This document shows, in pieces, positions 7,478 to 33,912 of a DNA stretch of 64,000 nucleotides. This DNA comes from Bryobacteraceae bacterium. Lineage in GTDB: Bacteria; Acidobacteriota; Terriglobia; Bryobacterales; Bryobacteraceae. A program made the position numbers and the translations under genes. The DNA is taken from assembly GCA_030041495.1 (NCBI GenBank), contig JASHNT010000116.1, positions 9,998 to 73,997 of the forward strand. Direction: 5' to 3'. How positions within the stretch are numbered: the stretch's first letter is position 1; each line of letters begins with the position of its first letter. The notes under the pieces are model-generated. The model ran no database searches. It was not told the DNA's origin and saw nothing but the letters and a program-made list of their open reading frames with translations.

Positions 7478-7508
7478 GGGGTCTCCTGTGGTGCGTGACA
7501 AGCAACGA

Positions 7509-8864: not shown

Positions 8865-8959
8865 CGCTAACTTTCTCCTATCCTAACTAAACCATCCTTA
8901 ACTGCCAGCCTTAAGCTCAACTTCAAACTAACTTACCGCGTTTTCAATTCATTTACGTT

Positions 8960-15821: not shown

Positions 15822-18800
15822 ATGAATCTGGGCGAGCAACTGAACGCGTACATCGCTGAACTGGAAAAACGCCTGCGCTGGAGCACGCTGCTCAAAGGCT
15901 TCGCGATCTTGACCGGCAGCGCGCTGCTTGGGACTCTGCTGCTGGTGACGATCGCGGACATGCGCGCGTTTTCCGCAGGCAGCGTGACGGCGTCGCGCTT
16001 CGTGCTGATTCTGATTCTAGCGATCGCGGCGGGGGCGGGGCTCGCGTGGCCGTTGCGGAGATTGACCCGGCGGTGGACGGTGGGCAAAGCGGAATCGGCG
16101 TTCCCGCAGTTCCAGCAACGCTTGATCACGTTCACCGAGCGGCAGGGGCAAGACCCGTTCATCGAATTGCTGGCTGGAGAGACGCTGGAAGTGGCGCAAT
16201 CGGCCGAGCCGAAGCAGATGGTGACGGACGGACGCTTGTGGGGCTCGCTTGCTACGGGTGTTATTTCGCTGGCGGCATTGATCTGGATTATCGCGGCGGG
16301 GCCGGGATTTCTGGGTTATGGAGCTTCCTTGTTGTGGACCGGGCCGCATGCGGATAAGCCGGCGATCTATCAACTGCGGGTGACTCCGGGCGACGCGGTG
16401 GTGCGGCGTCACGCGGATGAGTTAGTCTCGGCGCTGCCGACGGGGATGCAATCGCCGACGGTGAAGTTGCATGCGCGGTTCCAGAGCTCGGGGAAATGGG
16501 AAGAGATCGCGATGCTGCCGCAAGCGGCAGGAAGCTTCGCGGGAGGTTACCAATTCATATTCGCGGCGCTGCCGGAAAACGTGGAGTATTACGTGACCGC
16601 GGGCGCGATGACATCGCCGCACTACAACATTCGAGTGACGGATCTGCCGAGCGTGAAGCAGATTCGCGTCACCTATCATTACCCGGCGTGGACCGGATTG
16701 CCGAATGACACCGAGGAGCGTGGAGGCGATCTGCGCGCGGTGACCGGGACCCAAGCCGAGCTCGAGATTTCCACCGACCGTCCGCTTCAGGGCGGCGAGA
16801 TCCAGCTCGATAACGGGCAGAAAATCCAGCTTGCGACGGTGAAGCAGGACGGGCAGAACAACGTTTATCGCGGGACGCTGAAGATGGATCAGGACGGCGC
16901 CTATCACGTGGCGGGCATCGATGAGGGCCAGCCGGTGCGCGTGAGCGAAGACTTCTTTATCGAGGCTCGCAAAGCGGAGCCGCCGCAGATTGCGCTGACC
17001 CGTCCGCACGGCGATTATCACGCGTTGCCGATCGAAGAGGTGACGGTCGGCGTTAAGGCGGGGGACGAGTACGGCCTCAAGGGCGTGACGCTGCACTATT
17101 CGGTGAATGGCGGCCCGGAGACTGCTGTGGACTTGCTGCCACAGAAGGGCGAGAAGCAGGCGGACGGTTCGGCAACGCTGTCGCTCGAAAATTTCAAGCT
17201 GCAACCAGGCGACCTGGTAAGCCTGTACGCGACGGCCAAGGACGCCAACGCGGAATCGCACACCGACATGCTGTTTATCCAAGCCGATCCGTACGAGCGC
17301 CAGTTTACGCAGTCGCAGCAGGGTGGCGGCGGAGGCGGGGGTGGCGGCGGCGGAGGCGGCAACGAGGCCGCGCAGATCACGCAGCGCGAAAAAGAAATTA
17401 TTTCCCAGACGTTCAAGCAGCAGAACGATAAGAATTCGACTGCGCAACAGGCCGCGGAGATTTCGAAATTGCTTTCGCAATCGCAGGCGACGCTACGGGA
17501 TCAGTCGATGACGCTTTCGGGACGTCTCGAGGCTCGCGAGCTGACCGACGAGGTGAAGGCGATCAGCGACTTCGAAAAGGATATGGTCGCGGCGGCGCAA
17601 GTCATGGAGCCGGCGGCCAAGCAACTAGAGCAACAGAAGTGGAAAGACGCGATTCCGAACGAGCAAAAGGCTCTGCAATATCTGCAGCGCGCGGAGGCGA
17701 CGTACCGCGATATTCAGGTGGCGTTCGGAGCGCGCGGAGGCGGAGGAGGAGGCGGTGGAGGCGGCGCGGCTCGCGACTTGGCGGCGCTGTTCGACCTGGA
17801 GCTCGACACCCAGAAGAATCAGTATGAGACGCAGCAGAATTCCGCCACCACCGAGGAACAGAGGCAGCAGCAGATCGACGATGCGCTGAAAAAGCTGGAT
17901 GAGCTGGCCAAGCGCGAAGAGGCGCTCGCGCAGCAGCAGCGCAACGGCCAGGAGCAGACGGCGGAGCAGAAGTACCAACAGGAGATGCTCGAAAGGGAAG
18001 CGCAGCAGCTCCAGCAGCAGATGGCGGAGCAGCTTGGGCAGCAGGGCTCATCGAGTTCCTCTTCAAGCAGTTCGTCTTCGAGCAGCGCTTCGGCGAGCAG
18101 TTCTTCTTCAAACGGTCGCGGGGGACAAGGCGGCTCGCAGAGCAGCGCGAGCTCGCCGGAGTCCCGTCAACAAGCCCAGCAGCAGGCGCTCGACCGGCTG
18201 CGGCAGGCGGTCGACGACATGAAGCGCGCGACCCAGAACGGAAGCACGGCGGATTCGCGGCGCGCGGCGGACCGGTTGCGCGATGCGATGGATAAACTGG
18301 GGCAGACGCAATCGCAGGACGCGTCGGGGCAGATTGGCGCGATGGCCCAGACCGCGGGGCAGTTGGCGGAGCGTCAAAAGCAGACCGCCGACCAGGTGCG
18401 CGGAATCATCCAGCAGCAAAATGCGGCTCGGGCTGCGGGCAAGCAGCCGGAGTATCCTTCCTCGCAACAGATCGACAAGATGGTGGAGGATCGTCAGCAG
18501 GTCAGCGACGATCTGGACCGCTTGACGCAAAGGATCCGGGATGAGGCTCGCGCGCTGGCCACGACGCAGCCGGCGGCCTCTTCGAAGCTGCGCGGCGCGC
18601 TGCAGACGATGGACGATAACCAGCTTGGTAGCCGCGTGCAGCACAGCTCCGACGCCTTGGTTACGGGAGGGTTTTCGGATCAATCGGAATCGGCGATGAC
18701 CAGCGATTTGCAAAAGCTGAGCCAGCAGCTCACGGATGCATCCCGGGCGATGGGCAGTGCGCAGTCGAGCGATAAAGACGCGCAGCTCAATAGTGCGATG

Positions 18801-19517
18801 GATAATCTGTCGCGGCTGCGCGATCAGCTCGACGCGCTGGGGCGAGGCAACAATCCGCAGGCGGGCCAAGGCCAACAGGGGCAAGGCCGCGGACAGCAAC
18901 AAGGCCAAGGCCAGGGGCAAGGGCAGGGCCGGGGCGGACAGCAGGCTCAAAACGGGCAGGGCGGCCAGGGCGGATATCAGCAGAGCCAGCTTGGTCAGCA
19001 GGGCAATCCGCAGTCCGGGAATCGCGGAAACGCGCAAGGCACGACAGGCGATCGCATCGCGGGCGAAGTGAACGGCCCGGGCGGCGGTCCGCGTGGTCAG
19101 GTCTATAACAATTACGATACCGGCGGCAACTCACGTCCCGGTCAATCGGCGGAAGCGCGTCAGGGGCCGACTCCGCAGGACACGCAGAAGGAGATCGATC
19201 AGGGCTTGAACCTGCTCAACCAGATGCGTGCGGCCGTGCAGGATTCGCCCGAGGCGAAGCAGCAGTTGCAGGCGCTAATCGATGAGATGCGCAATCTCGA
19301 TCCGAAGCGGTTCCCCGGTAATCAGGGATTGATGGAGCAGATGCACCAGCAATTGCTGAGCAACGTGGATGCGCTGGAGCTGCAGTTGCGGCGGGAACTC
19401 GATCAGAATCAGGGCGGCATGATCCGCAATACCGATCCGGCGAAAGTACCAGCGGGTTACAAGGATTCGGTAGCGGATTATTTCCGCAAACTTTCCGGCA
19501 GCGATTCGACGAAATAG
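15822..19517 (+). CDS. large membrane-anchored protein with a Gln/Gly/Ser-rich coiled-coil and low-complexity C-terminal half (reminiscent of DUF4175-type proteins)
   Basis: 1231 aa. Three N-terminal hydrophobic helices and beta-rich middle modules. Then G13 (nt about 17322-17360), a second G-run (about 17735-17765), an S-run (about 18045-18110) and QGQG repeats (about 18860-18990). Codon periodicity is clean, whereas the antisense ORFs are Arg/Leu junk. Confidence 0.8.
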   Translation: MNLGEQLNAYIAELEKRLRWSTLLKGFAILTGSALLGTLLLVTIADMRAFSAGSVTASRFVLILILAIAAGAGLAWPLRRLTRRWTVGKAESAFPQFQQRLITFTERQGQDPFIELLAGETLEVAQSAEPKQMVTDGRLWGSLATGVISLAALIWIIAAGPGFLGYGASLLWTGPHADKPAIYQLRVTPGDAVVRRHADELVSALPTGMQSPTVKLHARFQSSGKWEEIAMLPQAAGSFAGGYQFIFAALPENVEYYVTAGAMTSPHYNIRVTDLPSVKQIRVTYHYPAWTGLPNDTEERGGDLRAVTGTQAELEISTDRPLQGGEIQLDNGQKIQLATVKQDGQNNVYRGTLKMDQDGAYHVAGIDEGQPVRVSEDFFIEARKAEPPQIALTRPHGDYHALPIEEVTVGVKAGDEYGLKGVTLHYSVNGGPETAVDLLPQKGEKQADGSATLSLENFKLQPGDLVSLYATAKDANAESHTDMLFIQADPYERQFTQSQQGGGGGGGGGGGGGNEAAQITQREKEIISQTFKQQNDKNSTAQQAAEISKLLSQSQATLRDQSMTLSGRLEARELTDEVKAISDFEKDMVAAAQVMEPAAKQLEQQKWKDAIPNEQKALQYLQRAEATYRDIQVAFGARGGGGGGGGGGAARDLAALFDLELDTQKNQYETQQNSATTEEQRQQQIDDALKKLDELAKREEALAQQQRNGQEQTAEQKYQQEMLEREAQQLQQQMAEQLGQQGSSSSSSSSSSSSSASASSSSSNGRGGQGGSQSSASSPESRQQAQQQALDRLRQAVDDMKRATQNGSTADSRRAADRLRDAMDKLGQTQSQDASGQIGAMAQTAGQLAERQKQTADQVRGIIQQQNAARAAGKQPEYPSSQQIDKMVEDRQQVSDDLDRLTQRIRDEARALATTQPAASSKLRGALQTMDDNQLGSRVQHSSDALVTGGFSDQSESAMTSDLQKLSQQLTDASRAMGSAQSSDKDAQLNSAMDNLSRLRDQLDALGRGNNPQAGQGQQGQGRGQQQGQGQGQGQGRGGQQAQNGQGGQGGYQQSQLGQQGNPQSGNRGNAQGTTGDRIAGEVNGPGGGPRGQVYNNYDTGGNSRPGQSAEARQGPTPQDTQKEIDQGLNLLNQMRAAVQDSPEAKQQLQALIDEMRNLDPKRFPGNQGLMEQMHQQLLSNVDALELQLRRELDQNQGGMIRNTDPAKVPAGYKDSVADYFRKLSGSDSTK

Positions 19518-19532
19518 CTCGCGCTATTGCCA

Positions 19533-20576
19533 TCACTTGCCGGCCGTCTTGACAAGGCCGCGGAGGGACTGCGGAAGATTCGCGAAATCTTCCGCGCTGA
19601 CCAATGCGGGTGTCAGAGGATCGGGGCCGTTTTCGCGCAGCGACTTGGTCCCCGCGGGACTTAACAGTAACTGAAGAAACTTGATCGCGTTGTCTCTGTC
19701 CGGCGCGTTCTTGAGCAGGGCAATGCCCCAAGCCAGGCGCGACGCCGGGACGGCGATGGTGCGGGCGCTGTGCGCAGTACCCAGGCCGGGCAAGACCACA
19801 ACCGCGTGCTCGCGATAGTACGATTCCTTGGCGGGATCGGAGAGGTTGATGTCGTCGGGCAAGTCGACATAGCGGTAATCGGGATTCGATGCCGCAGTTG
19901 CGCGGGCGTTGTGCTCGTAGGTGAGCTGGAATTCGAACTGCTTGCCGAGAGTGGCTCCGGAGCCTTGGCCCATGATAACCAGATGCTCCAGCAGATTGTT
20001 GTAGAGGTTGGGCACCTGATAATACTGTTCGGCGAGCTGGAAGATCATTGGCGCGCGATACGCTCCGGGATCGAGAAACCAGTTGCCTCCACCGATGGCG
20101 ACGCCGGGCGAGGTTAGGATCTGGTACCAGTTCGCGACCGCCTTGGGAATCGAGTCCGGCGGATGGAAGGCCGTCCCGGGTTGGGCGATGGCTGGCAGCT
20201 TTTTCGCGGCCAGGCCGCTGGCCGAATACGCCAGCACCGTACGGCCGTGCGCGAAGACGATGTCGAAGCTGGAGTAGCCGGCGGGCTTCATGAACAGGTC
20301 GATGTCCAGGTAATCGGCCGGGGCGTAGAGATCGGCGGTGTGGCCGCCGGCGGTGATCTGCCGGCCCATGTCGACGCTGCCTCCGGAGGTGTCCTTCACC
20401 TGAATTCCCGTTTCACAGGTGAACTGTTTCTCGAGCGGCTGGAAGGCGCGCGTGAGGCTGCCGGCGCGGTAGATGATCAATTGCTGATGGGAGGGCGGGA
20501 CGCAATTGGCCGATTCTGCCGCGGCAGCGGATGCTAAAGCGAGCGCGAGAAGGGACGGGTAGACGAATTTGGGCAT
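19533..20576 (-). CDS. periplasmic substrate-binding protein, molybdate/tungstate-binding (ModA/WtpA-like, SBP_bac_11-type)
   Basis: 347 aa with a signal peptide. IIYRAGSLTRAFQPLEKQF...VKDTSGGSVDMGRQI...ADLYAPADY is the pattern of ModA-like type II binding proteins. It sits 14 nt downstream of the TonB-dependent receptor. Confidence 0.6.
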   Translation of the reverse strand: MPKFVYPSLLALALASAAAAESANCVPPSHQQLIIYRAGSLTRAFQPLEKQFTCETGIQVKDTSGGSVDMGRQITAGGHTADLYAPADYLDIDLFMKPAGYSSFDIVFAHGRTVLAYSASGLAAKKLPAIAQPGTAFHPPDSIPKAVANWYQILTSPGVAIGGGNWFLDPGAYRAPMIFQLAEQYYQVPNLYNNLLEHLVIMGQGSGATLGKQFEFQLTYEHNARATAASNPDYRYVDLPDDINLSDPAKESYYREHAVVVLPGLGTAHSARTIAVPASRLAWGIALLKNAPDRDNAIKFLQLLLSPAGTKSLRENGPDPLTPALVSAEDFANLPQSLRGLVKTAGK

Positions 20577-20590
20577 ACTCAGCTCCTACT

Positions 20591-23170
20591 CTACAAGTCG
20601 TAGCGGATGGACGCAGTGATCAGGCGCGGATCGCCCAAGTGCGCGAGGTAACTGCCCGTGCTCTGGCCGGTGATGCTGCCGGGGCCGAGAGTGGACCAGT
20701 AGAACACGTTGGTGGCGTTGTTGACGGTGATGCGGAAGTTGGTGACTCTGTCCGCGATGCGCGTGGTGTAACGAATTCCGAAATCGAAGGTGTTGAATTG
20801 CGGCGTGTACTCGCTGTTGATGTCGTCAACGGGGCGGCGTCCGACGTGCTGCCAGTCAGTGTTGAAAAACAGACCGGTCAGCCTTGGCACCTGATACTCC
20901 GCCAGGATGTTGGAATGCCAGTCGGGGATGCCGACGAAATCTTTGTTGTTGGTAGCGGCGATGCCGGTGTCGGTAAGCTTGGGGTTGAGCGCGGTGAGTC
21001 CGCCGGTGAGCATCAGGCGCTCAAAGATACGGCCGGAGAGCATGGCCTCCGCGCCGTAATTGAGCTGATTGCCGGTGATCTGGTAGGCTTCGCAATTCGC
21101 CGTCCCGGATTGGGAGCCGCAGACGGGGTTCACAATGCCGGCGACGTAGTTAGCGAAAGGCCGCTCCAGGCGGAAAACGTCGGTGGTAAAGTTGATGCGG
21201 CGCAACCGGAGCTTATAGCCGATTTCACCTTGCTTGCTGCGATAGGGAGGCAGCGCTGAGCTCGCGTTGATGATGACCAGGCTGCCGCTATTAGCCGCCG
21301 CAACGTCGGGAGCCTGAAGGCTCTGAACGAAGGTCGCGTAGATGGTCTGATTCTGAGCGGGCTTGAATGCGAGACTCGCGGAGGGGCTGACGCCCTGGGA
21401 GTCGTAACCGCCCGCAGCGGCGACGCGGTTGTAGCCGGTGGACGCTTTGTCGGCGAACGCGCTGATCCAGGTCCAATCCTGGTTAACTCCCACGCGCAAA
21501 ATCCAGCGCGGCGAAAGCGTCATCTCGTCGTCGAAGTTGACGCCCTGCTGGTGAATGATGCTCGATTCATAAATGCCGGTTCCCGGCGCGGTGTAAGCGT
21601 AGGAGAAGATGCCGCCGGGAGGGATGATGTCGGAAAGCGGATTGGCGATGTTCGCCTCGCACACTCCTTGATAGGTGCACAGTGCGGTCTTTGCTGGGCC
21701 GTTCACGGGCGAGTAGCTGCCGAAACGATAGCCGTTGCTGCCAATGACGATGTCGTGAATGACGGAACCGGTGTTGACGCGGCCTTCCAGATAGCCGAGA
21801 TTGCTGGTGACCTCAAAGCGCGGCGCTAATGAGGAAAAAGCGTTGGCGAGGTAGCTTTTGTAGTCGCCGTTGTTATCGACGAACTGGTTGACGGCGGTGT
21901 TGATGTTGCGGTCGGCGATTTGATTGAGGGCTCCGGCGACGAAGTGCCAGCGCGCGCTGAAATCGTGCTTCAACCGAGCCTCGCCGATTTGCGACTTGAG
22001 ATCGACGCCGGAGAAAGATTGGCCGTAGCCGGGAAGCGTCGGGTTCGGAGCTTGCAGCGGAATCAGGATGCTCTTGGAGCCTGGCACGTCCACCGGCGTG
22101 GTGGTGGGCGAGTACGCGAACCAGCCCGGATATCCGTGCTGATAGAGGTTGTAGTAGCTGTAATTGCCTTCGATGGTGGTGTGCGAGGTCACGCGGTAAT
22201 CCGCGGCGATGGCGACCAGTTGCCGGCGTAGCTGGCTGTTGGAGACGTAGCCCTGGCCGTCGGCAAGCACCAGGTTAGAGCGGTAACCAAATTTTTTCTT
22301 CTTTCCCAGACGTCCGCCGAAATCGGTGTGGATAGTGCCGACCGAGTTGCCTTCGTAATCGAGCTCGATCTCGCCCAGGAACTCGTCAGTGGGGCGCTTG
22401 GTGATGAAGTTGAACATGCCGGAGGGATTGGCGGGCCCGTAGAGCGAGCTAGAGGCGCCTTGCACGACCTCGATCTGCTCGTATTCTTCCAGCGCGGAGG
22501 GAGTGGTGACGGCGATTCCCATGCCGTCCTTCATGTCGTTTTGCATGTTGCTGCCCTGCATGCCGCGCGTCTCCGGGCGCAGGACTTCGGGACCCTGCAT
22601 TTCCTGAAAGGAAACTAGCGGGAGGTATTTTGCGGCTTCCTTGAAATTGCGGGACTGTGTGTCGTCGATCAACTGGCGCGAGATGACATTGATGGAATAG
22701 GGCAGGTCGAGTATGGGCGTGGAGCCGAGCGGTCCTCCGGGTGCGACGTTGTCGACGCGGTAGGCGTTCTCGACGGTGCCGGCGGAGACAGTGACCGATT
22801 GCGCGATGCCTTGAAGCGGGAGGGTGAAATCGTACTTGACGGTTTGGCCGGAGTCGAGCTTCTGCTCCGGACTCTGGGCCGCCTGAAATCCTTTGGCGCC
22901 GGCGGAGACCAGGTAGGTTCCGGGCGCGAGAGAGTTGAACGAGTATGCGCCTTGCGCGTCGGTGCTGGCCGTGGCGGTGGTCTTGGTCTGGGGATTGGTG
23001 AGGATGACCTGGGCTCCGGGGATCAGGGCCTCCGTCGCGTCTTTGACGACTCCCGAGATTTGGCCGGTGGCCGAGGGGGCTTGCGCCCAAGCGGCATACG
23101 ATGCCAGCAGAAACATGCAGATGAATTCATATATATGCGCGCGAGGCAGGCGTAGGAAAATCATTTCCAT
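20591..23170 (-). CDS. TonB-dependent receptor with N-terminal carboxypeptidase-regulatory-like domain
   Basis: 859 aa. Signal peptide, then GQISGVVKDATEALIPGAQVILTN (CarboxypepD_reg-like). Plug region (VDNVAPGG...PYSINVISRQLIDD, IEVVQGASSSLYG), then a long beta-barrel. Confidence 0.85.
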   Translation of the reverse strand: MEMIFLRLPRAHIYEFICMFLLASYAAWAQAPSATGQISGVVKDATEALIPGAQVILTNPQTKTTATASTDAQGAYSFNSLAPGTYLVSAGAKGFQAAQSPEQKLDSGQTVKYDFTLPLQGIAQSVTVSAGTVENAYRVDNVAPGGPLGSTPILDLPYSINVISRQLIDDTQSRNFKEAAKYLPLVSFQEMQGPEVLRPETRGMQGSNMQNDMKDGMGIAVTTPSALEEYEQIEVVQGASSSLYGPANPSGMFNFITKRPTDEFLGEIELDYEGNSVGTIHTDFGGRLGKKKKFGYRSNLVLADGQGYVSNSQLRRQLVAIAADYRVTSHTTIEGNYSYYNLYQHGYPGWFAYSPTTTPVDVPGSKSILIPLQAPNPTLPGYGQSFSGVDLKSQIGEARLKHDFSARWHFVAGALNQIADRNINTAVNQFVDNNGDYKSYLANAFSSLAPRFEVTSNLGYLEGRVNTGSVIHDIVIGSNGYRFGSYSPVNGPAKTALCTYQGVCEANIANPLSDIIPPGGIFSYAYTAPGTGIYESSIIHQQGVNFDDEMTLSPRWILRVGVNQDWTWISAFADKASTGYNRVAAAGGYDSQGVSPSASLAFKPAQNQTIYATFVQSLQAPDVAAANSGSLVIINASSALPPYRSKQGEIGYKLRLRRINFTTDVFRLERPFANYVAGIVNPVCGSQSGTANCEAYQITGNQLNYGAEAMLSGRIFERLMLTGGLTALNPKLTDTGIAATNNKDFVGIPDWHSNILAEYQVPRLTGLFFNTDWQHVGRRPVDDINSEYTPQFNTFDFGIRYTTRIADRVTNFRITVNNATNVFYWSTLGPGSITGQSTGSYLAHLGDPRLITASIRYDL

Positions 23171-23199
23171 GAGGATAACCGGTTAAGGCCGGATTGAAA

Positions 23200-23219
23200 A
23201 TATGATGCTATGCTCATAT
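23200..23219. promoter_or_regulatory. inverted repeat ATATGA-N8-TCATAT in the 81-bp divergent region between the receptor and the ModE-like regulator; candidate operator
   Basis: Read directly: ATATGATGCTATGCTCATAT. It is AT-rich in an otherwise GC-rich context. Confidence 0.4.
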
Positions 23220-23251
23220 CTTTCATCGTAACTTAGATTGGAGAAGCGGCC

Positions 23252-24355
23252 TTGATTCGAATCGAGATCGACGCCTTGTGGGGTTTCCGGCGCGAAGACG
23301 ACGCCGCGCCGACGCGCGTGATGCTGGATCTGCTGAACGAGATCCGCGTCAGCGGCAAGATCAGCGATGCGGCTATGCGGGCGGGCTTGTCCTACCGGCA
23401 TGCCTGGAACCTGATCGAGAAGTGGTCGCGATTTTTCGGAGTACCGTTGGTGGAGCGCAAGCAGGGCAAAGGCACCAGCCTTACCGAGTTCGGAGGCAAG
23501 CTGGTGTGGGCGGGACAGCGTTTGCAGGCGCGGCTCGGGCCGCAGCTCCAGAATCTTTCGCAGGAGCTGGAGACGGAGATTAATCAGTTGCTTCCGCACC
23601 GGCCGGCGATCATCCGCGTGCACGCCAGCCACGGCTTCGCGGTTTCGAAACTGCGGGAGATGCTGAGCCGGGAGGAGGATCTGGGCGTCGATCTGCGCTA
23701 CGTGAGCAATCAGAACTCGCTGGTATCGCTGGCGCACGGAGGGTGCGACTTGGCCGGCATCCATCTGCCGCAGGGCGAGCTGCGCGACCGGAGCATTGCG
23801 GCGATGAAGGGATTGCTCAAGGCCAGCGTGCATCGCGTGGTGGGGCTGGTGACGCGCGAGATGGGATTGATCGTGAAGCGCGGGAATCCCTTGGGGATCG
23901 AGACACCGGCGCACTTGCTGGACCCGGGCGTGCGCTTCGTGAATCGCGATCCGGATTCGGGCACGCGGCTGCTCTTCGATCAGTTTCTGGCGCAGCACGG
24001 GCTGGCGGGAGAGCGGATCAACGGTTATGAACGAGTGGAGTTCACGCACGCGGCGGTGGCGGCGTACGTGGCCAGCGATATGGCGGATGTGAGCTTCGGC
24101 GTGGAAGCGGCTGCGCGCCAATTCGAACTTGACTTTGTGCCTCTGGTGACCGAGGACTATTTCTTTGTCTGCCGCAAGCAGTTTCTCGAAGCCGCCTCGA
24201 TGAAGCGGGTCCTGGAAGTGATGCGCAGCGAGGAGTTCCGCACGGCGATTTCGCAACTGCCCGGATACCGCTGCAAGGACGCGGGAGTGGTGAAGACGAT
24301 TGGCGAGGCGTTCGGCCCGCCGCTACGCGGGCGATCTCAGGGAGGAATGGCATGA
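23252..24355 (+). CDS. transcriptional regulator: ModE-type N-terminal HTH fused to a PBP-like (COG1910-type) oxyanion-binding domain
   Basis: 367 aa with a TTG start. LLNEIRVSGKISDAAMRAGLSYRHAWNLIEKW...LVERKQGKGTSLTEFGGKL matches the ModE N-terminal pattern (GSIS.AA...SY..AW). The remainder resembles the PBP_like domain found in TunR/ModE-like regulators. Confidence 0.7.
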   Translation: MIRIEIDALWGFRREDDAAPTRVMLDLLNEIRVSGKISDAAMRAGLSYRHAWNLIEKWSRFFGVPLVERKQGKGTSLTEFGGKLVWAGQRLQARLGPQLQNLSQELETEINQLLPHRPAIIRVHASHGFAVSKLREMLSREEDLGVDLRYVSNQNSLVSLAHGGCDLAGIHLPQGELRDRSIAAMKGLLKASVHRVVGLVTREMGLIVKRGNPLGIETPAHLLDPGVRFVNRDPDSGTRLLFDQFLAQHGLAGERINGYERVEFTHAAVAAYVASDMADVSFGVEAAARQFELDFVPLVTEDYFFVCRKQFLEAASMKRVLEVMRSEEFRTAISQLPGYRCKDAGVVKTIGEAFGPPLRGRSQGGMA

Positions 24356-25200
24356 GTTGGCCGGCGCCCGCCAATGAGGCGAGGGATGAGCGTCCTGGAG
24401 ATCCAGTGCCGGGGCATATTGGGGTCCACGCGTTCATAGGCTTTATCGTCGGGGTCGCGGGCGGATTGGTTGGATTGGGAGGAGCCGAGCTGCGTTTGCC
24501 GTACCTAGCCGGGACGCTCCGCCTTCCTTTGAAGAACGCCGTGCCGGTCAATCTCGCCGTCAGCTTGTTGACCTTGTTGGCGGCGCTGCCGGCGCGGCTT
24601 TTGACGCTGAAGACGGCGGGGCTCAATCCGTTCCTTGCCGAGACCGCCGCACTGGGAATTGGCGCGGTCGTGGGAGCATATGCCGGTGTGGACGGCCTGA
24701 GGAGGCTCTCGCCGCAAGCGCTGGCTCGCGCGGTGTTCGCGTTGCTCCTGTCGCTGGGGCTGATGATGATGGCCGAGCCGGTGGTGCATTTTGCGCCGCT
24801 GGGACTGGCGCCGGACTGGACGCCGCTGCGCATCGCAGCCGGCTTGTTGTGCGGCGTTTTGATCGGCGCGATCAGCGGGCTTCTGGGCGTGGCCGGAGGA
24901 GAAGTCATCATTCCCGCGCTGGTGCTCGAGTTCGGTGCGCCAATTAAGGCCGCGGGATCGCTGGGTCAGATGGTGAGCATTCCGACGGTTTTGACGGGAT
25001 TCGTGAGGCACCAACGCGCCGGCGCGTTTCGGGATCGCGAGTTGCTGATGCGCCTGATTGTTCCCATGGGCTTGGGTGCGATCGCGGGCGGGCTCCTGGG
25101 CGGGCTCCTGGCCGCTTATGTGCCTTCCGGCTTGTTGAAAGCGGCGCTGGGCCTGATTCTGATTGCGTCGTCGGTTAAGGTGTTCCGGAAACAGCTTTGA
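24352..25200 (+). CDS. TSUP (TauE/SafE) family anion permease
   Basis: 282 aa. Two 4-TM halves with G-rich motifs (VGVAGGLVGLGGAELRLP and ISGLLGVAGGEVIIPAL). The start overlaps the regulator stop by 4 nt (ATGA). Confidence 0.8.
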   Translation: MSWPAPANEARDERPGDPVPGHIGVHAFIGFIVGVAGGLVGLGGAELRLPYLAGTLRLPLKNAVPVNLAVSLLTLLAALPARLLTLKTAGLNPFLAETAALGIGAVVGAYAGVDGLRRLSPQALARAVFALLLSLGLMMMAEPVVHFAPLGLAPDWTPLRIAAGLLCGVLIGAISGLLGVAGGEVIIPALVLEFGAPIKAAGSLGQMVSIPTVLTGFVRHQRAGAFRDRELLMRLIVPMGLGAIAGGLLGGLLAAYVPSGLLKAALGLILIASSVKVFRKQL

Positions 25201-25211
25201 TTGGTGATTTT

Positions 25212-27236
25212 TTAGGGCAGGAGCTTCAGCAGCGAAGCCGCGTCCGTGACGGGGAGCTGGCAAGTGTAGTTCTCGCAAGCGTAGACCGTGGGCTGGCCTC
25301 CGGCGGCGGGCATGGGGACAGGCGATTGTTCGGCGCGCATGAGGATCGCGTTGGGCAGGAATTTCGCATGGATTGCCGCGAGCATCTCAGGATCGCGCGG
25401 CCCGGCGAGCACGATTTCCATGCGACGGCCGGTTGCGAACATTTGCGCCACCAGCATCTGCGGAACGGCGGTGGGGGTGGCGCGCAAGCGGCCGGCGAAA
25501 GCGTGAAGCGTGCGCTCGGCGGCTGACCGGAAATCGTCGCGGCCGGTGATGCGGGCGAGGCGCAGCAGGGCGAGGGTGATGGCGGAGTTACCGGAAGGCT
25601 CCGCGCCGTCGTAATCGTCCTTCAAGCGCAGGACGAGATCGGGTTGCGCGGCCGCGGTGGAGAAGAATCCGCCCTGTTGGCGATCTTCAAATAATTCGAT
25701 GGCCCGCTCGGCAAGGCGCTGGGCCCAGTCGAGGTCAGCGGCGTCGAAGTTGGCTTCGTACATGTCGAGCAGCGCCAGAGCGGCGAAGGCGTAATCGTCG
25801 AGAAAACCTTCGATGGCGGCGTCGCCACCGCGATAGCGCCGAAGTAAAGTGGCATCCGATTCGCGCCACAGTTTTGCGCGAATGAAATCGAGGGCGCGCC
25901 GGGCTGCGGCTTCGTAGCGCGGTTCCTTCAAGATCCGTCCGCCTTTGGCGAATGCCGAGATCATCATTCCGTTCCAGGCGGCGAGGATTTTGTCGTCGAG
26001 GTGCGGGCGTGGCCGGCGTGAACGGATCTCCACCAGCCTTTGGCTGGCTTCCGCGATTGCCGGGGTATTTTCGACGAAGTGCGCCTGGTACAGGATATTT
26101 TTGCCGATGAACTCGCCGTGAGGGTCTTCGGCGACGTTGCCGTGCTCGGCCACGCCGAAGCGGCGAGAGAAGATGGCTGCGTCCTGCTCGCCCAGAGCCT
26201 GCACCAGTTCGAGATGCGACCATAGGTAGAACGCGCCTTCGCTTTTCTTCCCGGGATGGGCTGGGTCGGGCGCGCTGTCGGCGTCTTCGGCGGAGTAAAA
26301 GCCGCCTTCGGGGGCGGCGAGATCGCGTAGGACGTAGTCGAAGACGGTACGAGCGACGTGAGCGAATTCGTGCTCGCCGGTGATCTGGAAAGCTTCGAGG
26401 TAAGAGACGGCGAGCTGCGCCTGATCGTACAGCATCTTTTCGAAGTGCGGCACCAGCCAATGATCGTCGACGGAATAGCGGTGGAACCCTCCGCCCAACT
26501 GATCGTTCATGCCTCCTTTGGCCATTTCACGGAGAGTGACCAGAGTCATCTCCAACGCCTCTTCATCCTTGGTTTGCGCGTGATAACGCAGAAGGAAATT
26601 CAGCACGCTGGGGCGGGGAAATTTGGGCGCGCCGCCGAAGCCTCCATGGCGCGGATCGAAGGAGCGCGCGAAGTGCCGGTAGGCGGTTTCGACGGCGTCC
26701 ATTGCAGAGGTGCCACTTGCCGCGCCATCACCAGCGCCGGAGTACTCCTTTAATTGTTCGATGACGCGCGCGCCGGATTCCTCGATCTTGGCTCGATCGG
26801 TGTGCCAGGCGTGCGCAAGACTCTGCAGCAGGGAAGCGAATCCCGGCCGACCGTAGCGATTATCGGGCGGAAAATAGGTTCCTCCGAAGAAGGGCTTGCG
26901 ATCCGGAGTCAGGAACACGCTCATGGGCCAACCTCCGCTGCCGGTGGCGGCTTGCACGAACAACATATAGATGCGGTCGACGTCGGGCCGCTCTTCGCGA
27001 TCCACCTTGATGGAGATGAACTCGCGGTTGAGCAGATCCGCGATGCGAGGATTCTCGAAAGATTCGTGCTCCATCACGTGGCACCAGTGGCAGGTGGAAT
27101 AACCCACCGAAAGGAACACGGGCTTGTCTTCCTGGCGGGCTTTTTCGAAGGCTTCGTCGCCCCAAGGGTACCAATCCACGGGGTTGTTGGCGTGTTGCAG
27201 CAGGTATGGACTTTTTTCCCCGGCGAGACGATTCAT
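25212..27236 (-). CDS. thioredoxin-domain protein, DUF255/YyaL family (N-terminal thioredoxin plus six-hairpin glycosidase-like domain)
   Basis: ORF 25212..27407. The ATG at 27236 gives [30 protein letters not shown]...[18 protein letters not shown], the hallmark N-terminus. This ATG overlaps the thrB stop (ATGA). Confidence 0.85.
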
Positions 27237-28159
27237 GACCGGGCCGATTCGTTGTGAAGTTGGTATCCTTTTTGCGCGACGCGGCAGCAGGTGATCTCCG
27301 AGGCTTTGCCGTGTTTGCGGAAAATTGCGCGCACACGCTCGCAGACGTGCTCGTGGCCGCGTTCGTGGAACACCAGAATGGAGGGTCCAGCGCCGCTCAA
27401 GGCGCATCCGAGCAGGCCGGGCTCGCGCAAGGCGACGATTTCTTGCAGGCCGGGAACCAGCGCGTATCGATACGGCTGATGCAAGCGATCTTCGAGAGCA
27501 GCCGGGAAGGCGTCCGTGGCTCCGCGCGTCAAGGCCGCAATCAGCAGCGTGCTGCGCTGGACGTTGAAGATCGTGTCCTCACGCGAATACCTTTCCGGCA
27601 GAACCCTGCGGGATTCAGTGGTGGGCAGGACGAAATCCGGCGTAACCACGGCGACGCCGTAATTCGGGTGAAGCTCCATGCGTACAGCGCGCGCAATGCC
27701 GTCGGAGTCTATGGCGCTGGCGACGATCGAACCCAGGGCGCACGCGGCGACGTTATCTGGATGGCCTTCGATGTACGCTGCCTCATGCAGGACGCGGTCG
27801 GCATCCCAGCCCAGATCGAGGATCTCATTGGCAATTACCACTCCGGCGGTGAGCGCGGCGGCGCTCGATCCGAGGCCCTTGCCGATGGGGATATCGTTGA
27901 CGATTTCCAGTTCGATCGACGGCATATTCTGCGCGGTGTCGGAGGCGACGCGCAGGGCGGTTTGCCAGATGAGGTTATCCTCGCCGTCCGAGATCATGGC
28001 GGCGTCGCGCCCGGCAACGCTGATGGCCAGCTCCGGCGCGGGCCGGAAGCGGCATTCCAGGTGGAGATCGAGCGCGAGTCCGAGTGCGTCGAAGCCGGGC
28101 CCCAGGTTAGCGCTGGAGGCGGGCACGCGCAGGATTTTGCGGCCGTCGGGCATGAACAC
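27233..28159 (-). CDS. thrB: homoserine kinase
   Basis: 308 aa. [19 protein letters not shown] and the GHMP motif [12 protein letters not shown]. Length and pattern are typical of ThrB. Confidence 0.85.
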
Positions 28160-30713: not shown

Positions 30714-31353
30714 TCACCGAGCCAGACATTGAAAGACCGGGCACTGCTCTCGAATCCGGTTTATTCCCATTGCTCGCGCGGCGTCCTCGCCGTGGCGGAC
30801 TTTTTGGTATGCCGGGAAGATTCTCAGCACCTGCTTAGATGGGGCGGTTCGCGGTGAATCGTTGATATCTTCCGGAGTTGCGAACCCGGCGCGGATCTTC
30901 TCAAACCTGGCTGCGAGTTCGGCGCGTCCGATGGCACTTCCGAGGGCGGCGCAGTCGCTGAAGAGCAGTCCCTCGAATTCGTGCATGACCACGAAAGGGA
31001 TGAACCACCTGGCATCGCCGGTCGCCTCCGTTACGTGCTTGCGCATGGCGTCCTCAACGCACGCGGGCGGTGCTGATACTGTTTGCTGCCTCCCGGCCCG
31101 GCCATGCTTTGCCACGGGTTGCCGGTAATCCGTAGAAGTCTACCATCGTGGAGATGACACAGCCCCTATCCCGCTTCAGGTCGCTGACGATTTCCTTCAG
31201 GGCGGAACCCCAAGAACAGATCCCAGATTTCCTGGAGCCGACGATGCGGGCGTCAACGCGATCATAGCCCACCGTTGTCAGATGCTCAGGAAGAATCCCG
31301 CGGACAAAACGAACCTCTGTCGGACCCTCCGCGTGCACCACGAGGCGGGCCAT
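30714..31353 (-). pseudogene. DUF4276 family (TOPRIM-like) protein, split by a frameshift into ORFs 31054..31353 and 30714..31115
   Basis: N-part: MARLVVHAEGPTEVRFVRGILPEHL...STMVDFYGLPATRGKAWPG. C-part, in another frame: ...ACVEDAMRKHVTEATGDARWFIPFVVMHEFEGLLFSD...FATPEDINDSPRTAPSKQVL...IREQCPVFQ. Together they give the full DUF4276 pattern as I remember it. The frames switch within about 31050-31070. Confidence 0.7.
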
Positions 31354-31359
31354 CGATGC

Positions 31360-32439
31360 TCAGGCCGGAACCGGCTGATCGCCGAATTCATTCTTTTCCC
31401 ACAACTGACCGAGACTGTAGTCCTCCAGCCATTCCTTAAAAGGCTCGGGCTCCAGTCGTCTGAGCGTGGTCGCGTCGTTGACGAGATCCGCGACCAATAC
31501 TTCCTTAGGCTCGAAGTAATCGAGCAAGGTCGGAGACTGGGTGCAGAGAATGATTTGGGTGCTCCGCGAAGCTTCTCGCACAAGCGCGGCCAGTATCGCC
31601 ATTGCGTAGGGGTGCAGGCCTAGCTCAGGCTCATCGATCAGGATGACCGACGGGAGATAACCCTGCGGCTGAAGCAGCAAAGTCGCGAGCATGATGAACC
31701 TTAGCGTGCCGTCGGACAGCGAGGAGACGCCCAAAGGATAGTTCGATCGCCTGTGATTCCAGTTGAGGCTGATGAATTCGGCCTGCTTTCCGTCCGGTTC
31801 GAGGCTGAAGCTGAGAAAGAACGGAGCCACTCGCCTGACTTCCCGAACGATGGAATCAAAATTCTCCCTGAAGTTCTCGTGCAGGTTGTAAAGAAAGGCA
31901 GGCAGGTTCGACCCGTCCGGCCTGAGGGGACGGCCATCCTCCACTCGCGCTGTTTTTCGAATTGGTGAGGAGGAGTCAGTGTCGTCCAAATGGTAAACCC
32001 AGCAGCGCCACAAGGCCGACTTAATCCAGCTTTCAAGCGAATGGCTGCCGCTGATACCGGCCTCCCGCCCACCTGCTTGGGGCTCAAGCGGGTCGGTGAT
32101 TCCATTGAGACATGTGGTCTCACCCTCCGGGAGCAACTGGCCGACTTCGCTTGGCCGGAGCGTCAGCCTGTAGCTCAACTTCCCGGACTGGAAGCCGAGA
32201 TTTGGGAATCTTGTGCTTTTTTCGCCGAAGTGCAATAGCCTGTCTGCGAACCGGGCGTTTTTACCGTAAGCTTCTAGCCGCCCCTCCCGAATCGCGTTCA
32301 GAAATGCGAACGCCTCGATGAAGTTCGACTTCCCGGACCCGTTCGCGCCGATTACAACATTCACTCGCTCCAGGGGCAGTTTCTCAATTGAGGCAATGCT
32401 CTTGAAGCCTTGAATTGTGATTGAGTCAAGTCCCTGCAT
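31360..32439 (-). CDS. ABC/SMC-like ATPase (AAA_21/AAA_15 type), partner of DUF4276
   Basis: 359 aa. Walker A GANGSGKSN, signature-like LSDGTLRF, Walker B plus D-loop VILIDEPELGLHP, and a Q/H region ILCTQSP. It ends 7 nt before the DUF4276 start. Confidence 0.85.
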   Translation of the reverse strand: MQGLDSITIQGFKSIASIEKLPLERVNVVIGANGSGKSNFIEAFAFLNAIREGRLEAYGKNARFADRLLHFGEKSTRFPNLGFQSGKLSYRLTLRPSEVGQLLPEGETTCLNGITDPLEPQAGGREAGISGSHSLESWIKSALWRCWVYHLDDTDSSSPIRKTARVEDGRPLRPDGSNLPAFLYNLHENFRENFDSIVREVRRVAPFFLSFSLEPDGKQAEFISLNWNHRRSNYPLGVSSLSDGTLRFIMLATLLLQPQGYLPSVILIDEPELGLHPYAMAILAALVREASRSTQIILCTQSPTLLDYFEPKEVLVADLVNDATTLRRLEPEPFKEWLEDYSLGQLWEKNEFGDQPVPA

Positions 32440-32491
32440 GGCTCTGCCCCATCATAACCAATCGCGGAATCCCTATATAATCAATAATCGA

Positions 32492-33328
32492 GTGGACATC
32501 TACGACGAAATCGTCCGTCTGCGCAGGCTGGGTCAAAAGTGCGCCCTGGCGACCATCGTGCAGAAGCGGGGGTCGATTCCGAGCTTTGAGTCGGCCAAGC
32601 TGCTGGTGCGCGAAGACGGCTCCATGATGGGCACGGTGGGCGGCGGGTGCGTGGAAGCCGAGGTGTGGAACGCCGCGCGCGAAGTCATCGACACCGAAAA
32701 ACCCAAGAATCTCTCCTTCAGCTTGGGCCAGGACGCCGCGTACGACGAGGGGCTGATTTGCGGAGGACAATTGAACATCTTCGTCGAGCCGGTGGTTCCC
32801 CAGCCGCAAGCCTTCATCTTCGGCGGCGGTCACGTCTCGAAGAGCCTTTCGAAAGTCGCGTCGATGGCAGGATTCGCCACAGTCATCGTCGATAACCGCG
32901 AGGCCTTCGCCAATCCACAGCGCTTCCCGGAGGCTGAAGCCACTTACGCGGAAGAGTACGAAGAGGTTTTCCCCAAGCTGAACATTACTTCTTCGGACTA
33001 CATCATTATCGTTACGCGCGGGCATCGCGACGATATGCGCGTGCTGAGGTGGGCGGTGACCACGCCGGCGCGTTATGTGGCTATGATCGGCAGCAAGCGC
33101 AAGACGATCTCGGTGGTGCACGAGCTCGAAAAAGAGGGCATCTCGCGCGACGCCTTCGAGCATGTGTTCGCCCCGATGGGTCTGGAGATCGGCGCGGAAA
33201 GCCCGGAGGAGATCGCGGTCTCGGTGGTGGCGGAAATGATTGCGGTGCGGCGCGCGCCGGTCAGCGACTGGCGATCGGTTTCGAAATCCATCTTTGCCAG
33301 CGAACGCCTCAAAGCTCTGCTGAAGTGA
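32492..33328 (+). CDS. XdhC/CoxI family molybdoenzyme maturation factor
   Basis: ORF 32417..33328. I prefer the GTG at 32492 (VDIYDEIVRLRRLGQKCALATIVQKRGSIP...GTVGGGCVE...IFGGGHVS), which matches the usual XdhC N-terminus. TATAAT lies at 32476-32481. ATG 32438 is an alternative start. Confidence 0.75.
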   Translation: MDIYDEIVRLRRLGQKCALATIVQKRGSIPSFESAKLLVREDGSMMGTVGGGCVEAEVWNAAREVIDTEKPKNLSFSLGQDAAYDEGLICGGQLNIFVEPVVPQPQAFIFGGGHVSKSLSKVASMAGFATVIVDNREAFANPQRFPEAEATYAEEYEEVFPKLNITSSDYIIIVTRGHRDDMRVLRWAVTTPARYVAMIGSKRKTISVVHELEKEGISRDAFEHVFAPMGLEIGAESPEEIAVSVVAEMIAVRRAPVSDWRSVSKSIFASERLKALLK

Positions 33329-33912
33329 TTGCATCGGTTATTCTTGCCGCGGGAGCCTCCAGCCGCATGGGCACTCCCAAGGCTCTGCTCGATTACCGTG
33401 GCGAGACGTTTCTCGACCGGCTCATCCGCGTGCTGGGAGCGGTGAGCGATCCCGTCATCGTGGTTCTCGGATATCACGCAGATCAGATCCGCGCGGCTGC
33501 GTGCGGCTCCGCGACCATGGTCGTGAATCCGCGGCCCGAGCGTGGGCAGTTGAGCTCGCTTCAAACCGGCGTGGCTGCGCTGCCAGCCGGTACCGAAGGC
33601 TTCGCCTTCATCCCCATGGATTGTCCCACGGTGCGCGAGGACACGATCACCAGGTTAGCGGAAGCGTTTACGTGCAGGACGCCTGGGACTGAGTTTGTCA
33701 TTCCGCGCCTGGGAGACAAGCGCGGCCATCCGGTTTTCGCCGCGCGGCCGATTGTGGACGAGCTGCTCGCGTTGCCGGAGGACGGCAAGGCTAGCGACGT
33801 GGTCCATCGGCATGTGCCTCAAACACAGTACGTCGACGTTGACGATCCAGGTATCCTCGCCGATATCGACGATCGAGCCAGTTACGAAAAGCTCCTGGAG
33901 ACGCTCACGTGA
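33325..33912 (+). CDS. MobA-like NTP transferase (MocA/molybdenum cofactor cytidylyltransferase-like)
   Basis: In ORF 33049..33912, the GTG at 33325 overlaps the xdhC stop (GTGA). It starts VIASVILAAGASSRMGTPKALL, the signature N-terminus of this family. Confidence 0.75.
   Translation: MIASVILAAGASSRMGTPKALLDYRGETFLDRLIRVLGAVSDPVIVVLGYHADQIRAAACGSATMVVNPRPERGQLSSLQTGVAALPAGTEGFAFIPMDCPTVREDTITRLAEAFTCRTPGTEFVIPRLGDKRGHPVFAARPIVDELLALPEDGKASDVVHRHVPQTQYVDVDDPGILADIDDRASYEKLLETLT

Follow-up and report, generated by a model that had tools for sequence, protein, structure and literature searches.

Gene organization of the locus

This analysis concerns a four-gene locus of a Bryobacteraceae bacterium (Acidobacteriota), located on contig JASHNT010000116.1 of assembly GCA_030041495.1. 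The whole stretch of DNA that was analyzed, 64 kb in length, is referred to as the window. The locus codes for a TonB-dependent outer-membrane receptor, a WtpA-like binding protein (hereafter the binder), a regulator with a ModE-type helix-turn-helix (HTH), and a permease of the TSUP/TauE family, which are arranged in two divergent operons (Table 1). It was checked with the use of the open reading frames (ORFs) of the window and comparisons with Pfam, NCBIfam, and the Protein Data Bank (PDB).

Table 1. Genes and control features of the locus (positions refer to the 64-kb window)
Feature	Position	Strand	Description
Predicted WtpA-like class III tungstate/molybdate-binding protein (binder)	19533-20576	-	347 aa; SBP_bac_11; Sec signal, no lipobox
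TonB-dependent outer-membrane receptor	20591-23170	-	859 aa; CarboxypepD_reg + Plug + TonB_dep_Rec_b-barrel
Divergent intergenic control region	23171-23251		81 bp; separates the receptor-binder and regulator-TSUP operons
Perfect palindrome ATATGA-N8-TCATAT, predicted operator	23200-23219		inside the 81-bp divergent region
Regulator	23252-24355	+	367 aa; ModE-type winged HTH + PBP_like (PF12727/COG1910)
TSUP/TauE-family permease, candidate inner-membrane tungsten/molybdenum oxyanion importer	24352-25200	+	282 aa; PF01925

The receptor and binder genes are co-transcribed, being separated by a gap of 14 nt in which an AGGAG Shine-Dalgarno sequence is located. The stop codon of the regulator gene overlaps the ATG start codon of the TSUP gene (ATGA), through which the permease is translationally coupled to the regulator. 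An initial annotation of the window had proposed the same four genes with this gap and this overlap, and all of the ORFs, as well as both junctions, are present as it gave them. It had also described the regulator as a ModE-type HTH containing GKISDAAMRAGLSYRHAWNLI fused to a PBP-like domain, and both parts were recovered. Residues 19-90 match ModE in the PDB (1B9M, E 1.6e-5) and align to residues 21-94 of the E. coli protein; HTH_1 was matched as well, and TIGR00637 gave 45.9 bits, which is under its cut-off of 98.5. The C-terminal half is a PBP_like domain (PF12727, E 8.7e-59). No Pfam match to a TOBE/di-Mop domain was found in the regulator. Because the Mop/TOBE domain is missing, the protein is classed by its domain composition as a regulator of the ModE-N/COG1910 type and not as ModE.

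The earlier statement that modB/modC-like genes do not occur at the locus could be extended to the entire window. Among its ORFs scanned with Pfam, there is no BPD_transp_1 permease and no oxyanion ATP-binding cassette (ABC) ATPase. A tblastn search of the 64 kb with TupA/B/C and ModA/B/C probes at E ≤ 1 revealed one match only, the Wzt O-antigen ATPase at 45.8-46.4 kb. The moeA/mobA-type cofactor genes that are present in the clusters of relatives were not found within the window either.

The binder and the outer-membrane receptor

The binder was assigned to Pfam family SBP_bac_11 with E 5.7e-24, and its best NCBIfam models are two WtpA equivalogs, NF003196 (175.6 bits, cut-off 355) and TIGR03730 (140.1 bits, cut-off 242.75). 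A phmmer search of the PDB gave matches to molybdenum (Mo) and tungsten (W) binders only; seven archaeal WtpA/ModA class III proteins came first (E 5e-27 to 3e-21), and bacterial ModA followed at E > 6e-5. When a profile of the binder family was used, the class III WtpA/ModA matches rose to E 1e-37. The AlphaFold2 model of the binder built from a deeper alignment (A3) reached a predicted local distance difference test score (pLDDT) of 93.9. The shallow alignment A1, with 26 close homologues, had yielded a model with a pLDDT of 51, which was discarded. The ten best matches of the A3 model in a Foldseek search of the PDB were all archaeal ModA/WtpA, with E values from 2e-25 to 2e-21 and target-normalised TM of 0.67-0.79. 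The next tier consisted of bacterial ModA at E ~1e-11, which leaves a gap of ten orders. A HMMER search of 1.84 billion representatives gave 51 sequences at E < 1e-30, many of them fragments, beyond which identity drops to classical WtpA-like proteins at 30-36%. As judged from these searches, the binder clade is compact and divergent, and the binder, by its sequence profile and predicted fold, falls into class III (WtpA/archaeal ModA) of the tungstate/molybdate-binding proteins as a divergent member.

The ligand positions S40 (in AGS), S67 (in GS), D169 (in DPxGYR), and Y220 (in Y-x-S) are invariant or nearly so, both in the clade and in comparison with classical WtpA. Class III binders are characterized by octahedral coordination of the metal with two carboxylates, the glutamate being E218 in A. 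fulgidus and E192 in A. ferrooxidans (PMC11350598). Based on the spacing of these residues (D153/E192 in A. ferrooxidans; D153/E218 with a 27-residue insertion in A. fulgidus), the second carboxylate was provisionally mapped to the 'SVEL' helix of classical WtpA. In the alignment, the acidobacterial clade has a Gly-rich loop without a conserved acid at this segment. The helix after the Y220 strand begins instead with an invariant E221-H222-N223, and E221, located at the N-terminus of this helix, could serve as a stand-in for the second carboxylate.

The binder carries a Sec signal whose cleavage site is of the AxA (signal-peptidase I) type, and it lacks a lipobox. A disulfide is suggested by Cys25 and Cys54, both of which are nearly invariant in the closely related members. 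A lipoprotein or surface-anchor reading of Cys25 was rejected, as the residues N, P, K, and T before it do not form a lipobox and the AxA site precedes it.

The receptor consists of an N-terminal CarboxypepD_reg domain, a Plug (E 1.9e-13), and a barrel (E 9.5e-30), and it contains a signal peptide and a TonB-box-like SVTVSA sequence. TIGR01783, the model of TonB-siderophore receptors, matches its residues 155-858. The end-to-end fit to this model, together with the nearest solved relatives (FemA, BauA, and FhuA, all siderophore receptors), raises the possibility that the receptor imports a metallophore complex, for example with a catechol or hydroxamate 'tungstophore' or 'molybdophore', and that the metal is stripped off or taken over by the binder. 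Porins are wide enough for free tungstate, and most of the W and Mo in acidic soils is sorbed or complexed, which also speaks for a complexed substrate. However, no biosynthesis genes for such a compound (non-ribosomal peptide synthetase, IucA/IucC type, etc.) were seen in ~50 neighbourhoods, and the binder retains the compact fold of oxyanion binders with most of the oxyanion ligands. Moreover, sequence similarity among TonB-dependent receptors predicts the substrate poorly. We consider a metallophore substrate unlikely. An Oar-type secretion receptor was also judged unlikely, although no Oar sequence was compared; the barrel fits the siderophore-receptor model from end to end over ~700 aa. 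No description of a TonB-dependent receptor for W or Mo was found in the literature.

Related loci, the control element, and the permease

One genome for each of 185,579 species was scanned with two peptide patterns specific for the binder family, which yielded 48 loci. All of them belong to Acidobacteriota, namely to Bryobacteraceae/Bryobacterales, Terriglobia, and Vicinamibacterales, in line with the guess of this phylum in the initial annotation, and the closest ones come from metagenome-assembled genomes of Bryobacteraceae. A cultured carrier of the receptor-binder pair, among the Terriglobia, is Edaphobacter aggregans DSM 19364 (locus L031). The receptor gene is located immediately upstream of the binder gene and on the same strand in 43 of the 48 loci, with gaps from -19 to 259 nt; one of the other five has a gap of 456 nt and the rest are fragments. 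The pairing is kept in L114, where identity of the binder is only 42%. It is lost in L113 (56% identity) and in L112 (39% identity), in which the binder gene lies beside MoaE. In the related loci, no WtpB/WtpC-type partner was found beside the binder, whose gene is preceded by that of the receptor. The receptor-less binder of L113 (5003-14115 of a GCA_936414205.1 contig) is embedded in a Mo/W 'super-locus' with formate dehydrogenase and FmdE, ModABC with a TOBE protein, a ModE-like HTH, three tandem TupA-like genes, TupB, and TupC.

The gene company of the pair was scored within 10 kb by ORF clustering and tblastn. MoeA and a MoeA-PBP_like fusion were found in ~27 loci. Other neighbours are MobA-like, aldehyde:ferredoxin oxidoreductase (AOR), MoaD-like, MoaA, and MoeB proteins. 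A two-subunit NAD-formate dehydrogenase, composed of a 51K subunit and an FdhA of ~960 aa (Fdh1-type), is also encoded near the pair, and we take its architecture to resemble that of the W-dependent MeFDH1 of Methylorubrum. TupA, TupB, and TupC were detected in eight loci (NCBIfam TupA 239 bits, TupB 186 bits): TupABC stands directly beside the pair in L015, L019, L028, L029, L031, and L032, and partial copies are present in L023 and L048. In L001, which shares the left-hand synteny of the window (DUF1552, DUF1592-family, MacB, PadR), the gene order continues with regulator-receptor-binder-moeA-moeA-mobA-aor. The module of the window is inverted relative to L001, with a 1231-aa low-complexity ORF intervening.

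In D. vulgaris, fitness data tied tupABC, moeA, moeA-PF12727, and aor to W-dependent AOR activity (PMC10102598). Transporters of W typically co-locate with W-utilisation operons, and the maturation genes of MeFDH1 are found together with tupBCA in Methylorubrum extorquens (moeA1-mobB-tupBCA; PMC13197769). Because an AOR-family enzyme, TupABC, the pair of MoeA and MoeA-PBP_like, and an Fdh1-type NAD-formate dehydrogenase are encoded near the receptor-binder pair in the related loci, the metal handled by the module is more probably tungsten than molybdenum, the latter being still possible.

Transport of another solute, such as an iron-siderophore, sulfate, vanadate, or phosphonate, with the Mo/W flavour of the locus reduced to a family resemblance, appears scarcely probable. 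Such a solute would be in line with the scores of the binder under the WtpA equivalog cut-offs, the missing classical second carboxylate, and the fact that TSUP proteins are best known for sulfur anions. Nevertheless, the pair and the TSUP gene are persistently found within clusters for W/Mo cofactors and tungstoenzymes in dozens of genomes, the regulator joins a ModE HTH to PBP_like, a domain also fused to MoeA, and TupABC adjoins the pair in several loci.

The binder gene follows right after the receptor gene, as susD follows susC, and is not placed beside an inner-membrane permease. This arrangement would also suit a WtpA-like protein that acts as a proteinaceous 'tungstophore', either extracellularly or on the cell surface, as would the second, conventional binder TupA of the Tup loci. 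A precedent exists in P. aeruginosa, where a molybdate-binding substrate-binding protein, ModA, is functionally paired with an outer-membrane protein, IcmP, in the acquisition of metal (PMC11734730). In that case, a canonical ABC binder is exported by the type VI secretion system and IcmP is not a co-encoded TonB-dependent receptor, whereas the acidobacterial proteins are encoded by a dedicated gene pair and the binder has a Sec signal. With an ordinary Sec signal, an AxA-type site, and no lipobox before Cys25, the periplasm is the simplest location, and no secretion-system genes accompany the pair in the related loci. An extracellular or surface role is quite improbable.

An orthologue of the regulator (70-82% identity) is encoded divergently from the receptor in ~30 loci. 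The palindrome found in the control region of the window is the sole match in the 64 kb to ATAKG-N8-ATCATAT at ≤1 mismatch, with 0.1 expected by chance. The exact ATAKG-N8-ATCATAT occurs once per locus in 30 related loci; it lies upstream of the receptor wherever that region was extracted, and the remaining sites agree by coordinate. The consensus from 27 distinct sites is A.ATA(G/T)G-N8-ATCATATTCCCA, and the conserved right-hand extension of the element may include the -10 of the receptor. For the regulator operon, one weak sigma-70-like match was found at 23194-23222 (+), which overlaps the palindrome. The simplest reading is that the palindrome is a predicted operator of the ModE-type HTH and governs both operons. 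In five loci (L026, L030, L037, L049, and L051; at ~5.5-6.8 kb in each), a regulator composed of an XRE-type HTH_3 fused to PBP_like is present instead upstream of the receptor-binder pair. These loci have the same sensor domain as those with the ModE HTH and another DNA-binding domain, and the ATAKG-N8-ATCATAT element is absent from them. A scan for terminators was uninformative (0 found, 5.6 expected).

In the Tup-type loci L019, L029, L032, and L048, another conserved sequence (ATATGATATGTCG...) is located upstream of the receptor. Genes for a LuxR-type response regulator and for a PAS histidine kinase are located nearby, and the receptor-binder pair may be under different control there.

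The permease was identified by Pfam PF01925 (TauE) with 107.4 bits, against a cut-off of 32.6, in two stretches, and it contains the invariant motifs GLGGAELR and GVAGGE, one per half of the protein. A metagenome scan with TSUP-specific peptide patterns gave 56 loci, 47 of them at ≥60% identity. All 12 loci with ≥60% identity and a flank of ≥5 kb carry partners from the module or the cluster; the contigs without partners are short or one-sided. In nine loci, the TSUP-regulator operon is divergent from the receptor-binder operon, with a gene order opposite to that in the window. The order in L055 is moeA - TSUP - binder - receptor - regulator. In L053 and L054, it is moeA - moeA/PBP - mobA-like - TSUP, with the TSUP gene overlapping the stop of mobA, beside aor and formate dehydrogenase genes. 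The tightest linkage of the three transport components was observed in L058 (6225-11913), where receptor, TSUP, and binder form a single operon with gaps of 12 and 8 nt and a divergent regulator. These data indicate that the permease is not a chance neighbour of the module.

More distant TSUP proteins, 36-40% identical to that of the window, were found as well. In L109 (1-10741) and its relative L106, both with GC of 45-46%, the TSUP gene (~36% identity) is the last one in a molybdoenzyme/molybdenum cofactor (Moco) operon, which in L109 reads type II molybdoenzyme alpha, Fer4_11 beta, EB_dh gamma - MobA - MoeA - MobB - CMD - MoaA - TSUP. In L107, TSUP comes after a MobA-like gene, and two MoeA genes lie at a distance of 7 kb. 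Ties between a TSUP subfamily and genes for Mo/W cofactors are thus seen in at least three lineages, which suggests a wider, Moco-tied subfamily outside Acidobacteriota.

Import of a tetrahedral oxyanion by the TSUP fold has a precedent, because a TauE-family protein was shown to import sulfate (PMC11535334). A search of the literature for a tie between TSUP/DUF81 and Moco gave nothing relevant and no experimental demonstration. Kazakov et al. (2013; J Bacteriol 195:4466) reportedly predicted that TunR regulators of sulfate reducers repress genes of TSUP-family transporters; this would be an earlier in silico link between TSUP and W/Mo homeostasis.

The route across the inner membrane may instead end in an unlinked ABC permease (TupBC, ModBC, or WtpBC) to which the binder delivers the oxyanion, with the TSUP protein serving another purpose in the same regulon, such as low-affinity uptake, efflux of surplus oxyanion, or sulfur-anion transport. 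The TupABC genes found directly beside the same pair in six loci, and in partial copies in two, favour such an ending. The binder of L113 (56% identity) lies among ModABC and TupABC and has no permease of its own, and characterized TSUP members handle sulfite, sulfoacetate, or sulfate. Furthermore, at least one of the known ABC systems is present in more than 90% of the prokaryotes that use Mo (PMC6147048). On the other hand, the Tup loci hold a separate TupA, because of which the WtpA-like protein appears to belong functionally to the receptor and not to the permease, and is not simply the binder of the ABC system. The position of TSUP within the operon of L058 and its translational coupling to mobA-like or regulator genes also argue against this ending, as does the lack of any locus with TSUP and Tup together. 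Taken together, an ABC-type ending seems to us somewhat unlikely.

Several neighbouring genes of the window were also recorded. The 1231-aa ORF (15822-19517, +) is located between a PadR-MacB block and the binder gene, at a place where L001 has its regulator directly beside PadR. Its product has a membrane segment at the N-terminus, a stretch with weak similarity to DUF4175, and long tracts of poly-Gly, poly-Ser, and Gln-rich coiled-coil-like sequence, and the AT skew over the ORF is strongly positive (0.16). On the other side, a 731-aa DUF255/Thioredox_DsbH (YyaL-like) protein is encoded at 25212-27407 (-), convergent with TSUP and ending 12 nt past it; this gene was not seen beside TSUP in the related loci. 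The orphan xdhC-like and mocA-like genes that had been noted 7 kb away are indeed present, as XdhC (32417-33328) and a MobA/MocA-like NTP_transf_3 protein (33049-33912). Their ORFs (32417-33912, +) overlap as listed and lie outside the conserved module of the relatives, and no xanthine-dehydrogenase-family enzyme was found anywhere in the window. At 30714-32439 (-), an AAA_21 gene (AbiEii-type/OLD-like ATPase, 359 aa) followed by a DUF4276 gene (133 aa) resembles a two-gene module of the defence type. Further to the left, at 7509-11365 (-) and 5681-7501 (-), there are a planctomycete-type DUF1592/DUF1588/DUF1585/DUF1587/DUF1595 protein, a DUF1552 (HXXSHH) partner, and then a 606-aa ankyrin-repeat protein; the genes of the first two have syntenic counterparts in L001/L002.

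Proposed uptake route and its place among known systems

The locus is probably a module, specific to Acidobacteriota, for the acquisition of tungstate and possibly of molybdate as well, and most likely represents an import route not yet described for W/Mo. In this route, the TonB-dependent receptor would bring scarce W/Mo species, as the free oxyanion or in a ligand-bound form, through the outer membrane, and the co-transcribed, secreted WtpA-like protein would catch the oxyanion in the periplasm. The binder would then hand it over for inward passage across the inner membrane, which may be provided by TSUP in this organism and by TupABC in other acidobacterial lineages. The PBP_like domain of the regulator would sense cytoplasmic tungstate/molybdate, and its ModE-type HTH, bound to the palindrome, would turn both operons off when the metal is sufficient. 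The imported metal would feed a W-cofactor pathway (MoeA, MoeA-PBP_like, MobA-like) for AOR and NAD-formate dehydrogenase. The genes of this pathway are next to the module in relatives, and in this genome they would be located beyond the 64-kb window.

The initial annotation had regarded the locus as a possible ABC-independent uptake system for molybdate/tungstate (or a metallophore). This interpretation is partly supported, and of the refuting outcomes that it had named, none of those examined in silico turned up. The Mo/W part stands: the profile search (E 1e-37) and the ten best Foldseek matches place the binder among Mo/W oxyanion binders and not in another family of substrate-binding proteins, and the genomic context agrees. 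Of the two metals, tungsten is favoured by the gene company. The receptor and the ModA-like protein, seen there as a neighbourhood that might recur in Acidobacteriota, are conserved as a unit (43/48 loci). The neighbourhood of TSUP does not vary independently, as in every well-flanked orthologue locus this gene stays with the regulator, the receptor-binder pair, or W-cofactor genes.

Some observations weigh against the proposed module. The binder scores under both NCBIfam WtpA cut-offs, and because its second-carboxylate segment is replaced by a Gly-rich loop, the coordination, and perhaps the ligand, may differ from those of classical WtpA. The solved proteins nearest to the receptor are siderophore receptors, and small oxyanions normally pass porins, which leaves the need for a TonB-dependent receptor unexplained. 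We know of no TSUP protein that works with a binding protein. The TSUP gene lies within 10 kb of the binder in only ~8 loci, TupABC does so in 8 others, and many loci have neither. By a rough estimate, with only ~1.3 expected, the lack of loci with both is not significant; complementarity of TSUP and TupABC (8 loci each) was therefore judged weak as evidence of displacement. Since TupABC adjoins the same pair in other acidobacterial loci, independence from ABC transporters stays a candidate reading.

A further-reaching set of claims is put forward only tentatively, as possible. The locus may be the first TonB-dependent tungstate/molybdate uptake system with a WtpA-derived partner, and its TSUP subfamily may constitute a fourth, non-ABC class of Mo/W importers. 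Bryobacterales would then possess a complete ABC-independent route, and the same TSUP subfamily may serve Moco operons in other phyla.

The component families and the overall architecture of TonB-dependent uptake are known. The new elements are the proposed substrate of the receptor, an orphan WtpA-derived binder wedded to it, and TSUP as a candidate for the inner-membrane step. The binder is similar in fold to the binding proteins of WtpABC and archaeal ModABC (P. furiosus WtpA, A. fulgidus ModA; PDB 2ONK/2ONR/3CG1; Foldseek E 1e-25, TM up to 0.79), and it has the AGS and GS serines, the Asp of DPxGYR, and the Tyr position of Y-x-S. It differs from them in its identity of just 25-36%, scores below the equivalog cut-offs, the lack of WtpB/WtpC partners, the replaced second-carboxylate helix, and the invariant E221-H222-N223 after the Tyr. 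It is also bacterial (Acidobacteriota), not archaeal, and is encoded behind a TonB-dependent receptor.

The proposed system shares with FhuA-FhuD-FhuBC and BtuB-BtuF-BtuCD the logic of three compartments (an energised receptor, a soluble binder, and an inner-membrane transporter), as well as metal-responsive repression, here predicted, from a divergent promoter. In contrast to these systems, a W/Mo oxyanion is presumed to be the substrate, the gene of the binder is linked to that of the receptor and not to that of the permease, and the candidate inner-membrane component is a TSUP secondary carrier and not an ABC permease. With TupABC and the W-cofactor/AOR clusters of D. vulgaris and M. extorquens, the acidobacterial loci have in common aor, moeA, moeA-PF12727, NAD-formate dehydrogenase, and an oxyanion-sensing regulator. 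TupABC adjoins the pair in Terriglobia-type loci, and the window itself is devoid of Tup genes. What sets the acidobacterial clusters apart from those is an additional outer-membrane receptor together with a second binder, which is WtpA-like. Among ModE, ModE-N, and TunR regulators, that of the window shares the HTH of ModE, and its sensor domain, PBP_like/COG1910, is found in fusion with MoeA as well. It lacks the Mop/TOBE di-domain of ModE and the XerC/D-like DNA-binding domain that TunR carries. The predicted operator ATAKG-N8-ATCATAT was derived in the present analysis.

The prokaryotic Mo/W uptake systems recognised so far, ModABC, WtpABC, and TupABC, are all ABC transporters, and 278 of 3683 Mo-using bacteria (~7.5%) have none of the three (PMC6147048). 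The module suggests two additions to this picture, namely an energised outer-membrane step for W/Mo and an inner-membrane step performed by a secondary carrier (TSUP). If this is true, the TSUP subfamily could account for some of the Mo-using bacteria without a known transporter. Acidobacteriota are among the most abundant soil bacteria, and W and Mo are poorly available in acidic soils. That the receptor-binder pair is tied to AOR and to a formate dehydrogenase of the Fdh1 type implies that aerobic soil bacteria actively provision a tungsten metabolism which has so far gone unappreciated.

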